A stretch of DNA of 6,070 nucleotides from the IMG/VR virus record IMGVR_UViG_3300029495_000074, one strand, 5' to 3'. Each line of letters starts with the position of its first letter. The first letter of the stretch is position 1. Positions 3,429 to 6,070 of this stretch are shown one piece after another. The notes under the pieces were generated by a model, which saw nothing but the letters and a program-made list of their open reading frames with translations, was not told the origin of the DNA and made no database searches. This DNA is from a virus. Made by a program: the position numbers and the translations under genes.

Positions 3429-3660
3429 TCGGCTTGCCCTCCCATGTTTTTTCCTTTTCGTTTGTAAATTCGCCGGTTTCGTCTTCAAAAACCGCCAGCT
3501 TAAAGCCGGTATAGTCGCCTGGCGCCTGTCCAACAAACGTTTTTTCATCCTTTGCCATAACGTTGCACATTCGTGCGAATGTTGCGTTGTTCTTGCTCTC
3601 TCCTACCCATGCATAGCATTTTGCCACGCTGTCCCACAAGCCGAAATATTCATGCTTCAT
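3421..3660 (-). CDS. VP5: VP5-like nonstructural protein (79 aa).
   Basis: MKHEYFGLWDSVAKCYAWV...ATFARMCN...PGDYTGFKLAVFEDETGEF matches my recollection of the gokushovirus VP5 pattern (x-D-S-K-A-x-x-Y near the N-terminus, D-F/Y-T-L-F-E-L-G-x-F-D-x-x-T-G later). The AAAGGAGAG SD lies upstream of ATG 3660. Its position upstream of VP3 is syntenic. Confidence 0.7.
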   Translation of the reverse strand: MKHEYFGLWDSVAKCYAWVGESKNNATFARMCNVMAKDEKTFVGQAPGDYTGFKLAVFEDETGEFTNEKEKTWEGKPNE

Positions 3661-3679
3661 GTTATTTACTCTCCTTTGT

Positions 3680-3781
3680 TTACAGCCGGATGCCGCCGCG
3701 CATAGGCTTTTGGCTGAGGTTAATAGTTTTGGTTTTTCGCGCTGTCACGTTGAACATTCGCCGGTCTTTTGCTCCGCTCAT
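3680..3781 (-). CDS. VP8: Small basic DNA-binding/packaging protein, VP8/J-like (33 aa). Not in the supplied ORF track.
   Basis: Manual translation gives MSGAKDRRMFNVTARKTKTINLSQKPMRGGIRL*. It is highly basic, and the C-terminal MRGGIR(L/F) motif matches what I recall for chlamydiamicrovirus ORF8-type proteins. It fills the gap between the 75-aa ORF (stop 3786) and VP5 exactly. No clear SD is present, and the ATG lies 4 nt after the upstream stop, which may indicate coupling. Confidence 0.65.
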   Translation of the reverse strand: MSGAKDRRMFNVTARKTKTINLSQKPMRGGIRL

Positions 3782-3785
3782 TTTT

Positions 3786-4013
3786 TTACGATGTTGTGCC
3801 ATCATTATACTCCCTTCTCATTAATTCCGTTTCGATTGCGTTTGCTAAGGCTTTCATTGCCCAGATTTCATCGATTAACTTATGAGCGTCCTCGATGTTT
3901 GATACTCTTTTGAGCATTTTATACTCGCCTTCTATTTCTTTGTATTTTCGCAAGAGTAGTTCTTGCAATGCTTCTTCGGGCTGGTCTCGTATATTCCATG
4001 TTTTGTACGTCAT
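3786..4013 (-). CDS. Hypothetical protein (75 aa), predicted all-helical and acidic.
   Basis: Start taken at ATG 4013 (MTYKTWNIRDQPEE...) because AAGGAG lies 7 nt upstream and the upstream ORF stops 4 nt before it. The track ORF begins further upstream at 4067 without an SD. I recognise no family. Confidence 0.6.
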   Translation of the reverse strand: MTYKTWNIRDQPEEALQELLLRKYKEIEGEYKMLKRVSNIEDAHKLIDEIWAMKALANAIETELMRREYNDGTTS

Positions 4014-4017
4014 GATT

Positions 4018-4134
4018 TTACTCCTTTTCGTTGATGCTATCGTGCAGTGCGTGATAGATTTCGTCAAGCTTTTCGAGGATTTGCATCATAATGCGGATTG
4101 CCTGTTTGACGTCTTTGATACTGATTAGTGCCAT
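4018..4134 (-). CDS. Hypothetical small protein (38 aa). Not in the supplied ORF track.
   Basis: Manual translation gives MALISIKDVKQAIRIMMQILEKLDEIYHALHDSINEKE*. The AAGGGGG SD lies 6 nt upstream of ATG 4134. It starts 1 nt after the peptidase stop, and its own stop lies 4 nt before the next start, so it fills the gap exactly. Confidence 0.5.
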   Translation of the reverse strand: MALISIKDVKQAIRIMMQILEKLDEIYHALHDSINEKE

Positions 4135-4135
4135 T

Positions 4136-4528
4136 TTATACCCCCTTTCTGTACTTTGCATTGCGTACATCAAAATGTATCCAGTTATCGTATACGATAA
4201 TGCCGCAATTGTTTGGTACGATTTTATTTAGCTCCTTTGCTACGTCTTTTGGTGTCATGCCGTTTACTCGGATATCTGCTGCGCATCCTCTCATGTGGTA
4301 GCTGTACTTTGCACCGCCAACTTTTTTGTTGTGTTCCGGTGTCCGGTATCCGCTGGTGATGATTATCGGTTTGTTGATTGTCTGCCGCAGCATCTCTAGC
4401 AGTGTTACTAGATATTCGTCGATAAACACGATCGGGCTCCCGTCTTTGCACGCAAATTCTTTTACTTTAAAGTGGTTTGTGATTTTTACGTTTCCGTCTG
4501 TGTCTGCGAGATAGCTCTTGATGTTCAT
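4136..4528 (-). CDS. Zinc peptidoglycan peptidase, Peptidase_M15 (M15_3/M15A, LAS-fold) family. Candidate endolysin (130 aa).
   Basis: The family motifs appear in the expected order: F-K-V-K-E-F-A-C-K-D-G, then SGYRTPEHNKKVGGAKYSYHMRGCAADI (the S-x-H-x-x-G-x-A-x-D zinc-ligand motif), then WIHFDV (H-x-D). No N-terminal signal peptide or TM segment is visible. Confidence 0.85.
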   Translation of the reverse strand: MNIKSYLADTDGNVKITNHFKVKEFACKDGSPIVFIDEYLVTLLEMLRQTINKPIIITSGYRTPEHNKKVGGAKYSYHMRGCAADIRVNGMTPKDVAKELNKIVPNNCGIIVYDNWIHFDVRNAKYRKGV

Positions 4529-4534
4529 ATCCTA

Positions 4535-4759
4535 TCATCCTTTCGTTATCTTGTCAATTTCTGATGCGGGATACGTGGCGTAATCTGTGTATGTTATGGT
4601 GTTTAAGATTTGGCTGTCTCGATCGTTGCGCCCGATCAGGTACTCGTCTGTACCGTCTAAGTAATCTATAACGTATTTGTTGCCATATTTTGTCGTTCTT
4701 TTGCTTTCGCCTTTTTTTATCATGTCAATTAGGACTTTTTTTAGATCTTTTTTTCTCAT
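4535..4759 (-). CDS. Hypothetical protein (74 aa), first gene after the promoter.
   Basis: The ORF begins about 40 nt downstream of the predicted transcription start, after a purine-rich leader (GAAAGAAGTGAAAC). It has a basic N-terminus (MRKKDLKKVLIDMIKKGESKR) and a likely beta-rich remainder. Its stop lies 6 nt before the peptidase ATG. I recognise no family. Confidence 0.55.
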   Translation of the reverse strand: MRKKDLKKVLIDMIKKGESKRTTKYGNKYVIDYLDGTDEYLIGRNDRDSQILNTITYTDYATYPASEIDKITKG

Positions 4760-4807
4760 TTTGTTTCACTTCTTTCTTTTTTTTGAGGTTTCTCTCTCTC
4801 TTTTTGT

Positions 4808-4836
4808 ATTATACCACTTTATGCTTTTTTTTGCAA
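4808..4836 (-). promoter_or_regulatory. Near-consensus sigma70/sigmaA promoter with an extended -10, driving the whole minus-strand operon.
   Basis: The minus strand reads TTGCAA (4836..4831), a 17-nt spacer ending in TGG, then TATAAT (4813..4808), i.e. TGnTATAAT. It lies at the downstream edge of the noncoding region, directly upstream of the first ORF. Confidence 0.75.
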
Positions 4837-5002
4837 GTGAATGTTTTTCATCTTAGCGTTAATCGTTTTTTAGTCTTGACTTTCATAGTTTGTTCATTTT
4901 TGTTGCTGGTCTTGCTCCTTTGTTTTGAATGCGCTTTAGCGCTCTTCCGTGCGTAGCGTATGCGGAGCTCGGATAATCCATTCATTGTAAGCGCTGTGCG
5001 CG

Positions 5003-5169
5003 TTTTCAACACTTTCAACAGTTTCAACAGGTTTTCAACATAAAGTTGCACAAAGGTTTTCGTCATTTTGACGGACTTTCAACAATTCAACAAGTTTTCA
5101 ATAAAACTTTCAACAGTGTTTTTTGCTTTTTATTTACGCTTTAGCGTTAAATTTTAGTACTTTTCAACT
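5003..5169. repeat. Array of nine direct yTTTCAACA repeats (TGTTGAAAr on the coding strand): two clusters of four plus one outlier.
   Basis: The 9-mers start at 5003 TTTTCAACA, 5012 CTTTCAACA, 5021 GTTTCAACA and 5032 TTTTCAACA. After a 35-bp spacer holding a CGTCA-TTT-TGACG mini-hairpin (5061..5073), they continue at 5076 CTTTCAACA, 5084 AATTCAACA, 5095 TTTTCAATA and 5107 CTTTCAACA, with an outlier at 5161 TTTTCAACT. Spacing within clusters is 8 to 12 bp. Confidence 0.85.
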
Positions 5170-5253
5170 TTTCCACTACCTCTACTACTACTCCTACAAC
5201 AAGTTATATATTATACGGCGCTTGTGAGCTTGCGAACAATAGCGCCTAAGAGC

Positions 5254-5296
5254 CGCGCGTGCGCGCGTGCGCGCTTCGCGCGCGTGCGCACGTGCG
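5254..5296. other. GC-rich alternating pyrimidine-purine (CG/TG) inverted repeat: a 20-bp hairpin and Z-DNA-prone tract.
   Basis: 5254..5274 (21 nt) and 5277..5296 (20 nt) each alternate Py-Pu perfectly. On the plus strand 5254..5273 pairs with 5296..5277 as 17 Watson-Crick plus 3 G-T pairs with a CTT loop. On the minus strand the three wobbles become A-C mismatches. Confidence 0.8.
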
Positions 5297-5318
5297 ATAA
5301 GAGATAGCTATTTGATAG

Positions 5319-5358
5319 ACCTAGCCCAGTATCTTACTTGATAGGTACTGGGCTAGGT
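5319..5358. other. Perfect 13-bp inverted repeat (stem-loop) 16 nt downstream of the Rep stop. Candidate origin or terminator structure.
   Basis: ACCTAGCCCAGTA (5319..5331) pairs with TACTGGGCTAGGT (5346..5358). The 14-nt loop is TCTTACTTGATAGG, which can tighten to an 8-nt loop TACTTGAT through three further pairs (5332-5345 G-T wobble, 5333-5344, 5334-5343). Confidence 0.8.
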
Positions 5359-5373
5359 GACACTATGACACTG

Positions 5374-6070
5374 TTAAAGTGTCCCTCTCTTCTTCGTTTG
5401 CTTCTTGATTACTCTCTCCCTCGTTTTACACTGTTCTGCAAAGTCTGTGTTCTCATACTTTAGCCGGTTTTCTGCTATCGCTGCTTCTTGTCTGTTCTGT
5501 TTAATTCTCCACAATCTTTGTGGGTTTTCAGCTTCCATTTTCTTTTCATAGTATCGTGGTATCTGCGCGTGCTTTCCGTTTGTACACTGTATATAGCCTT
5601 GTCTCCAGATTTCTGCTTTGTGTTTTTCGTAATAGTTGTCTCCTAAACCCGGCTTTAGGCTCATACATGCAAATGGTTTTGCTTGCCCTAGCTCGTAGTA
5701 TGCGTTTGCTTTTTGACCGTCTATCTCATACATTTTTTTTGTGACGTATCCAGCAACATATCTATATGTTTCCGGCACTGCTTGTGCTATCTGTATTTGA
5801 CCCATGCCCCATAGGTCTGCTAGCCATTTACTTGTAAAGTATCCGTTGTGTTGTATCTTGTATAGGTGTTCTAGGTCTGTTGGTTGCCATCCATACAAGA
5901 TCATGTGGTAATGTGGTCTTGCTGTCTGTTCTCCGTATTCTCCCGCTACAAAATAGCGTAATTTGCCCCTGTAAGCCTTTCTGAGCCGTTTTAAAAATTT
6001 TTGAACGTCAGGATACAGTAACGTTTGGACGCTTTCAGGGCGCTTCTCTCCCGGCTTCCAGACGTATTGC
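5374..6070 (-). CDS. VP4: Replication initiation protein VP4, C-terminal part. 5948..6070 duplicates codons already listed in 1..123.
   Basis: The track ORF 5374..5904 stays open upstream to the window end: ...RYFVAGEYGEQTARPHYHMILYGW... It carries the HUH motif (HYH) and the catalytic tyrosine region YRYVAGYVTKKMY. The stop TAA is at 5374..5376. Confidence 0.9.
   Translation of the reverse strand, partial: QYVWKPGEKRPESVQTLLYPDVQKFLKRLRKAYRGKLRYFVAGEYGEQTARPHYHMILYGWQPTDLEHLYKIQHNGYFTSKWLADLWGMGQIQIAQAVPETYRYVAGYVTKKMYEIDGQKANAYYELGQAKPFACMSLKPGLGDNYYEKHKAEIWRQGYIQCTNGKHAQIPRYYEKKMEAENPQRLWRIKQNRQEAAIAENRLKYENTDFAEQCKTRERVIKKQTKKRGTL
5948..6070. repeat. Terminal direct repeat, copy 2 (redundant with 1..123).
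   Basis: Same 123-nt string as 1..123, so position 5948 is equivalent to position 1. Confidence 0.95.

Follow-up and report, generated by a model that had tools for sequence, protein, structure and literature searches.

Four genes between Rep and VP8 in a gokushovirus genome probably form three layers of differing age and mobility

The window analysed here, a 6,070-nt stretch of viral DNA (IMG/VR record IMGVR_UViG_3300029495_000074), is a complete circular genome of 5947 nt; its first and last 123 nt are identical, forming a terminal repeat. All genes lie on the minus strand, in the order Rep, orf74, peptidase, orf38, orf75, VP8, VP5, VP3, VP1, VP2. The subject of this report is the 974-nt stretch that holds the second to fifth of these genes: an M15 peptidase and three small open reading frames (ORFs), orf74, orf38 and orf75. 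With a probability of roughly 0.7, this stretch is a composite of three layers that differ in age and mobility, all read in one direction. The layers would be an older pair, orf38 and orf75; a peptidase gene, acquired horizontally and placed upstream of them; and orf74, an exchangeable accessory gene dropped into a variable slot.

Distribution across related genomes

Relatives were drawn from 80 IMG/VR genomes (of 264 loci found with the peptidase as seed), from 45 further IMG/VR genomes (of 237 loci found with orf38), and from GenBank genomes and contigs bearing orf74, orf75 or orf38 homologues. Three clades are distinguished by their identity to the window. Clade A comprises genomes with Rep at least 70% identical; clade B has Rep ~37% and VP1 ~40% identical; and clade C consists of four GenBank genomes (MG945157, KT264798, MG945135, and MG945391) with Rep and VP1 ~45% identical.

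The first-pass annotation of this DNA had described the four genes as a single inserted cassette, inherited together, and had proposed that co-occurrence in related genomes be checked. The outcome is mixed. A three-gene block followed by VP8 (peptidase, orf38, orf75, VP8) is present in 103 of 107 clade-A genomes, and the remaining four lack only orf75. However, orf74 is rare: 100 clade-A genomes carry the three-gene block without it, and the four-gene pattern occurs only in loci that were found with orf74 itself. Moreover, the order differs in clade B, where it is peptidase, VP8, orf38, with orf75 between peptidase and VP8 in a few members. Clade C has no peptidase. There, a relative of orf38 lies directly upstream of VP8, and the 68-75-aa ORF before it aligns to the orf75 profile (hhalign, 86% probability). 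Another genome (L146, Rep 34%) likewise has orf38-like (50%) and orf75-like (52%) genes together with VP8, and no peptidase.

Thus orf38 and orf75 recur beside VP8 in four divergent gokushovirus clades, including those without a peptidase. VP8, found in 89 of 90 loci, is their constant neighbour in every clade, whereas the peptidase is not. By this distribution, the orf38-orf75 pair predates the arrival of the peptidase gene. With orf74 intact in none of 133 relatives sampled independently of it, and with orf38 and orf75 occurring apart from the peptidase, co-inheritance of all four genes as one cassette does not hold.

The nearest GenBank genomes show the same arrangement. Human gut gokushovirus SH-CHD5 (KX513868 = MG945514) and Gokushovirus WZ-2015a 43Fra07 (KT264791) can be aligned with the window across 82-89% of the genome, where 83-84% of nucleotides are identical (83% across 89% for KX513868), and share the order Rep, peptidase, orf38, orf75, VP8, VP5, VP3, VP1, VP2. 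Both lack orf74 and its promoter leader; KX513868 has other small ORFs in the slot.

orf74 and the variable slot

On sequence evidence, orf74 behaves like a moron-like, promoter-bearing accessory module in a variable slot. This reading follows from its sporadic carriage, from a leader and promoter limited to its carriers, and from the existence of a decayed copy.

No intact orf74 was found in 83 peptidase-seeded and GenBank loci or in 45 orf38-seeded loci. Among the 133 relatives sampled independently of orf74, 132 lack the gene and one (L095) retains a deletion remnant. In this remnant (L095 1163-1318; GCA_900521355.1, ULKY01022080.1) the last ~20 codons directly follow the promoter leader, ~160 nt being missing in comparison with window positions 4598-4757; the product is a 51-aa ORF (P0257) that reads through the promoter boxes. 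The gene is scarce database-wide: 5.8 billion proteins yield nine clusters at 90% identity, and 1.84 billion yield about five true members of the family, each from a contig of 3.9-6.0 kb. A wide search for its origin returned only microvirus-sized contigs and spurious repeat proteins. Carriers belong to clade A (L084, L085, L087, and L089) and clade B (L086 and L088). In each, orf74 lies directly upstream of the peptidase gene, sometimes accompanied by further small ORFs of 56, 72 or 88 aa. Distant relatives (36-48% identity) occur in two peptidase-less gokushoviruses, L145 and L146.

The promoter-like site upstream of orf74 has 10 of 12 consensus matches plus the TG element (pattern scan), and its boxes (TTGCAA-17-T(G)nTATAAT) are invariant in 7 of 7 orf74-bearing genomes. 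By blastn, the leader that contains it is common only to orf74 carriers, whereas the rest of the intergenic region is matched in 55-88 of 89 loci. The slot itself is situated directly downstream of the conserved intergenic region and is occupied by alternative small ORFs or by none: the interval from Rep to peptidase ranges from 145 to 1030 nt and contains 32 ORF families, at least 10 of which recur in two or more genomes.

Promoter-like sites are also seen elsewhere in the slot. Other occupants (in L001, L019, L022, L032, L034, L009, and others) likewise have a perfect extended -10 promoter-like site upstream, though its sequence differs; in L019 and L032 such a site, TTGACAAGCGACAAAAAAAATGATATAAT, lies 25 nt before the peptidase ATG. 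The strict extended -10 pattern is matched in the Rep-to-peptidase interval of 17 of 79 genomes. Extended -10 promoters are typical of Firmicutes.

In several respects orf74 resembles the morons known from tailed phages, lambdoid ones included: one small gene with a promoter, lying between conserved genes, patchily distributed and known also as a decayed copy. A promoter that travels with the gene, one hallmark of morons, is present at the level of sequence, the promoter being putative. The other, a terminator of its own, is absent: none was predicted on the minus strand from 3600 to 5500, including between the four genes. Unlike tailed-phage morons, therefore, orf74 would be read through into the peptidase gene, whose ATG is 6 nt downstream, and its carrier is a 6-kb single-stranded DNA phage. 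The module shows that, even in phages of this size, accessory genes with promoters come and go at a fixed slot.

Coding status and selection

All four ORFs are genuine genes, as the first-pass annotation had argued, and are under purifying selection (Table 1). In relatives, frames are free of internal stops in 7 of 7 cases for orf74, 90 of 90 for the peptidase, 84 of 85 for orf38, and 64 of 65 for orf75. Lengths are maintained as well, at 73-76, 123-136, 34-40, and 71-75 aa, respectively. The ratios of nonsynonymous to synonymous substitution rates (dN/dS, 0.11-0.28) fall within the range of the core genes, from 0.07 (Rep) to 0.29 (VP2), and substitutions are in excess at third codon positions. 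Interrupted ORFs, lack of conservation at the protein level, and lack of coding constraint, each of which the annotation had listed as grounds for abandoning its proposal, were looked for; none of them applies. A 72-aa ORF in the intergenic region, considered as a fifth gene, was rejected: its substitutions are spread evenly over codon positions, and stops interrupt 32 of 77 homologous stretches. It serves as a non-coding control.

Table 1. Features of the region, with selection measures for the reading frames
Feature	Position	Strand	Description	Median dN/dS	Substitutions at codon positions 1/2/3
orf74	4535..4759	-	74 aa, basic, isoelectric point (pI) 9.1; predicted alpha-beta4-alpha, AlphaFold2 (AF2) mean predicted local distance difference test (pLDDT) 83	0.28	
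Peptidase_M15_3, putative endolysin	4136..4528	-	130 aa, LAS-type zinc peptidase	0.16	2061/1190/4893
orf38	4018..4134	-	38 aa, acidic amphipathic helix, a/d heptad pattern	0.11 (dS ~1.15)	270/165/1066
orf75	3786..4013	-	75 aa, acidic two-helix hairpin; 3' end overlaps VP8 start by 20 nt	0.19	1175/620/1672
VP8	3680..3805	-	41 aa, basic, pI 12, putative DNA-binding protein; phrog_10695, 1.6e-11		
Promoter-like site	4808..4836	-	TTGCAA, 17-nt spacer, extended -10 TGgTATAAT; 49 nt before orf74 ATG		
orf74 leader	4760..4893	-	promoter-like site and weak Shine-Dalgarno motif; blastn match in 6/89 other loci		
Intergenic region	4760-5373		614 nt; conserved part 4913..5373, core 5073-5213; bounds the module, not part of the cassette		
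72-aa ORF	4848-5066	-	non-coding control		464/361/337

Longer, TTG-started forms of two of the genes can be drawn on the minus strand, 51 aa for orf38 (4018-4173) and 93 aa for orf75 (3786-4067); each would overlap the gene ahead of it. In public gene calls, orf38 relatives frequently appear in such extended forms, of 50-77 aa. The short forms are favoured because each has a conserved ATG with a Shine-Dalgarno (SD) motif, and because the lengths of 38/40 aa and 75 aa are conserved. Neither gene is annotated in GenBank records KX513868 and KT264791. There is an annotation gap, in which orf38 and orf75 are routinely missed or given the wrong start by gene callers and record annotators.

The peptidase

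Homology suggests that the peptidase is a horizontally acquired endolysin. It matches PF08291 (Pfam; 1.2e-23, 83.7 bits against a cut-off of 23.2) over the full model (1-108), and the PHROGs family phrog_894, "endolysin" (5e-45). Its SxHxxGxAxD motif (H-x6-D plus a distal H) aligns to the D-Ala-D-Ala carboxypeptidase 1LBU, and its zinc ligands H78, D85, and H118 do not vary among 87 distinct homologues. Over ~88% of its length the protein is 38-50% identical to annotated tailed-phage endolysins; M15 endolysins with the same LAS-type H-x6-D...H zinc site are known from SP6/K1E-like phages of Escherichia and Salmonella and from Vibrio phages. No signal peptide or transmembrane segment was detected in it. 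Tailed phages pair an M15 endolysin with a holin, and often with spanins, whereas the coding strand of the window encodes no membrane protein.

This layer has been known since 2012. In five gokushoviruses of the human gut, Roux et al. (2012, PMC3394797) identified M15_3 peptidases whose closest relatives were in Faecalibacterium; they argued that these had been acquired horizontally, suggested an endolysin function, and noted neighbouring ORFs that matched nothing in the databases. Among the lysis-associated accessory genes of microviruses, Kirchberger et al. (2022, PMC9239249) include peptidases, and they find that a peptidase region of ~700 nt recombines between microvirus families; they also describe small peptides, ~65 aa on average and with no function assigned, that are common to several families. 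The window peptidase belongs to the same PF08291 family as these published gut Microviridae proteins and invites the same endolysin proposal. The reported recombination fits the identities seen here, 68-75% between clades for the peptidase where Rep identity is 37%. Neither paper defines the families of orf38 and orf75, reports that these occur independently of the peptidase, or describes the promoter-bearing orf74 module.

orf38 and orf75

Across clades, sequence comparison makes orf38 the best-conserved protein of the lineage. It is 69-75% identical to its clade-C relatives (over 32 aa) and 65-75% identical to those of clade B, although Rep and VP1 are only 36-46% identical across the same clades. 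The protein is 95% identical in KT264791 and 100% identical in KX513868. In the latter, 19 of the first 32 codons differ, and the constraint therefore acts on the protein and not on a nucleic-acid element. Conservation as a DNA or RNA element was rejected on further grounds: the proportion of synonymous differences (pS) is 0.5-0.96 versus 0.03-0.18 for nonsynonymous ones (pN), and Rfam gave nothing. Nor does recent transfer explain the similarity, because synonymous differences between clades amount to 0.5-0.7 per site.

The orf38 family comprises 475 protein clusters, as counted with the 51-aa upstream-extended ORF as query, and 237 IMG/VR loci; the orf75 family comprises 371 protein clusters. 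Within the phage collection, all members of the two families come from metagenomic gut gokushoviruses and are mostly unannotated, and a search of 185,579 bacterial and archaeal species genomes found no orf75 relatives.

All nine a/d heptad positions of orf38 are hydrophobic, with more hydrophobic residues at e/g, and the hydrophobic moment (muH) is 0.45. Across relatives it is a heptad-repeat helix of 34-47 aa. The pattern suggests a coiled coil whose wide interface would serve a homo-oligomer or a bundle to which orf38 contributes one helix. The AF2 model of orf75 (pLDDT 91.7) has helices at residues 13-36 and 40-70, preceded by an N-terminal motif, W6-N7-x-R9-D10, that is invariant.

The first-pass annotation recognised no family for the three orphans, and neither profile nor structure searches have supplied one. 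Best E-values were 0.055 in Pfam (sub-threshold) and 0.07 in PHROGs; NCBIfam gave none and PADLOC 0 hits; profile searches of PDB gave E of at least 0.4; and Foldseek comparison of the AF2 models with PDB and BFVD gave no hit at E <=0.001. Individual candidates also failed. For orf75, Foldseek finds generic helical hairpins only (E >=0.56). PURA repeats, the best Foldseek hits for orf74 (E 0.4, TM score ~0.5), are not credible fold relatives. The orf38 sequence "LEKLDEIY" resembles the Spo0E-like motif "SQELDxLIxxY"; the spacing differs, however, and there is no Pfam Spo0E match at E <=1. The description of the orphans as mostly helical and acidic suits orf38 and orf75, but orf74 is predicted to be alpha-beta4-alpha and is basic overall.

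In animal guts, few phages are as common as gokushoviruses. The peptidase and the variable slot follow known patterns; the small helical proteins orf38 and orf75 do not. Both are unannotated in GenBank records yet core-gene-like across divergent clades, and the 38-aa orf38 is very strongly conserved. The two are sensible first choices for work on gokushovirus biology.

Proposed roles and alternatives

Transcription would start at the promoter-like site and run through orf74, peptidase, orf38, and orf75 as far as VP8 and VP5; with the genes so closely spaced, translation is likely to be coupled. Judging from homology, the peptidase would cleave peptidoglycan peptide links late in infection. The orf38 and orf75 proteins are presumably cytoplasmic, with no enzyme fold, and would most probably function through protein-protein binding, as homo-oligomers or in a small helical bundle. 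Their constant adjacency to VP8 and their lack of dependence on the peptidase suggest, tentatively, that such binding takes place, as part of the work of VP8 and VP5, at the stage of replication, packaging or assembly. The orphans had also been proposed as partners of the peptidase. A dedicated role of that kind is disfavoured because relatives of each, orf38 and orf75 among them, occur in gokushoviruses that have no peptidase.

Several points weigh against this layered interpretation and the roles attached to it. The relatives were seeded by the peptidase, orf38, orf75, and orf74 themselves, and are not a random gokushovirus sample. The high inter-clade identity of orf38 and the peptidase could in part reflect old recombination, which saturated synonymous sites cannot separate from constraint. 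Promoter-like sites are no more frequent in the region than in shuffled controls (4 versus 3.2), and the sigma-A/sigma-70-type consensus may not be that of the host. No homologue found by the searches assigns a function to orf38, orf75 or orf74, and VP8 adjacency is the sole positive hint of a packaging or assembly role. Finally, the 1-nt distance between peptidase and orf38 in clade A also fits a lysis module, and, there being no holin candidate, an unrecognised release factor may be needed, for which orf38 is a candidate.

This last possibility can be developed into an alternative in which all four genes form a lysis cassette, with the peptidase as endolysin and one or more of the small proteins, orf38 above all, taking the place of the missing holin as the factor for its release, timing or activation. 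By the account in PMC3394797, no lysis mechanism has been established for gokushoviruses, and something must account for export or timing of a signal-less peptidase: among all stop-to-stop segments on the coding strand of the genome, no 19-aa Kyte-Doolittle window reaches 1.6. The amphipathic orf38 lies 1 nt after the peptidase gene in 107 clade-A genomes. The same hydropathy scan, however, denies the small proteins a membrane-spanning segment, their best windows being -0.12 (orf74), 0.95 (orf38), and 0.58 (orf75). The small membrane protein that accompanies the endolysin in a holin-endolysin cassette is accordingly missing, and no coding-strand frame has the transmembrane segment of a phiX174 E type protein; nor are orf38, orf75, and orf74 overprinted, save for the short overlap of orf75 with VP8. 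Very strong sequence conservation is, in addition, unusual for holins and single-gene lysis proteins. Given that VP8 separates the peptidase from orf38 in clade B, and that orf38 and orf75 relatives inhabit peptidase-less genomes, a lysis cassette is unlikely. A related reading is distinctly improbable: that orf38 is an unrecognised micropeptide, near-universal in a large group of gut gokushoviruses, and the missing lysis-timing or membrane-permeabilising factor, a homo-oligomeric amphipathic coiled coil. It draws on the lack of a transmembrane protein, adjacency in clade A, persistence without the peptidase, and a sequence near-unchanged while synonymous sites became saturated. If true, orf38 would act alone in peptidase-less phages, and in others would let the signal-less endolysin reach the wall.

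It is also rather doubtful that host takeover or anti-defence is the task of orf38, orf75 and/or orf74, as small binders that inhibit a host protein such as a division, replication, transcription or immunity factor. All three are small and soluble with no enzyme fold, and orf74, which would be expressed first from the promoter, is a sporadic promoter-bearing gene in a slot that many other ORFs can occupy, as is typical of accessory genes for counter-defence or exclusion in phages. Yet PADLOC, Pfam, PHROGs, and the structure libraries returned no match; orf38, more conserved across clades than any core gene, does not look like an arms-race gene; and the dN/dS of orf74 gives no sign of diversifying selection. 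Least probable is a reading in which the peptidase is an entry or virion hydrolase or a role-less remnant, and the small ORFs are chance ORFs kept by overlapping signals. Classical microviruses do lyse without an endolysin, phiX174 protein E inhibiting cell-wall synthesis (PMC3394797), but nothing speaks for this reading directly. The purifying selection on all four ORFs, with third-position excess where computed (peptidase, orf38, and orf75), contrasts with the non-coding pattern of the control ORF in the same data; the zinc ligands are invariant; and the closest non-microvirus relatives of the peptidase are annotated endolysins in tailed-phage lysis regions (PMC3394797). The layered composite remains the preferred interpretation.

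Genome context

The genome qualifies as a member of the Gokushovirinae (Microviridae) by circle size, F-type capsid protein, VP2, VP3, Rep, and VP5. Core gene products match Pfam profiles PF02305 (6.8e-136), PF09675 (3.8e-12), and PF20577 (2.9e-9), and the pilot protein matches phrog_8742 (PHROGs, 1.7e-125). Rep (VP4, 338 aa) is uninterrupted across the circle junction. The closest GenBank records carry the Gokushovirinae classification; after KX513868 and KT264791, the next-nearest are ~20 microviruses of 5.2-6.1 kb from pig, monkey, and human faeces.

Much of what the first-pass annotation said of the layout is borne out. Rep, VP8, VP5, VP3, VP1, and VP2 were recovered in the core gokushovirus order, with the four ORFs at their assigned coordinates between Rep and VP8/VP5, downstream of the consensus-like promoter and with no intervening terminator. 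Gaps are 6 nt (orf74-peptidase), 1 nt (peptidase-orf38), and 4 nt (orf38-orf75), within the 1 to 6 nt described. The SD motifs credited to the last three genes are present as AAAGGA (peptidase), AAGGGGG (orf38), and AAAGGAG (orf75); VP8 has GAAGGGAG, and the motif upstream of orf74 is weaker than these four. The extra module and the noncoding region had also been invoked to explain genome size. Without the 974 nt taken up by the ORFs and the 614 nt of noncoding DNA, ~4.36 kb would remain, and the arithmetic fits because this is the size of the six-gene enterobacterial gokushoviruses (4.3-4.7 kb; PMC7062461).

Enterobacterial gokushoviruses of the EC6098 group have the same core set (VP4, VP5, VP3, VP1, VP2, and VP8), and their variable regions include a non-coding stretch and the VP2 C-terminus (PMC7062461). 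Unlike the window, they have no peptidase and carry VP8 elsewhere, and in the phage collection orf38 and orf75 relatives were not found outside gut metagenomic gokushoviruses. An analogy between the slot and the "defensive hypervariable regions" of enterobacterial gokushoviruses was set aside: going by PMC9512667 and by the variable VP2 C-terminus, those regions belong to the pilot protein VP2 rather than to the stretch from Rep to VP5.

In four metagenomic contigs, from several samples, microvirus genes are joined to bacterial DNA (L090 9400-10282 and L091 6128-7284; L093 9551-10844 and L094 9475-10347). One set involves an Oscillospiraceae-like chromosome whose polynucleotide phosphorylase (PNPase) is 92% identical to that of a Hadza gut metagenome-assembled genome (MAG); in the other, a Bacteroides-like locus for glycoside hydrolases GH92 and GH95 is joined to microvirus genes. 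The junctions fall within a variable-slot ORF and within the peptidase gene. The contigs are either defective integrations or assembly chimeras. Host assignment through prophage integration was considered and rejected, the junctions lying inside microvirus genes and synteny with reference MAGs ending too early for a check; any integration is putative. The lead for a host is Oscillospiraceae/Faecalibacterium.

The intergenic region after Rep is probably a replication origin or regulatory region. Its conserved part has nucleotide matches in 40-88 of 89 loci (75-88 of 89 when taken with its core at 5073-5213), including those of clade B, whose proteins are ~37-40% identical, and contains hairpins at 5319-5358 (16-nt arms) and 5254-5296 (GC-rich, 20-nt arms). 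At least eight copies of TTTCAACA (GTTGAAA on the coding strand) lie at 5004-5119. The region had been called noncoding. It holds the 72-aa ORF that some callers annotate, but this ORF has no coding signature. Its "protein" is what the GTTGAAA repeats give when translated; in L087, L088, and L095 it has been listed as a gene of 72-76 aa. A repeat-bearing piece of ~200 nt (window 5002-5213) is found in opposite orientation relative to the genes in L092 (436-647), MT135268 (842-1145), and KT264784 (2583-2694); in L092 it is present as an inverted duplication.

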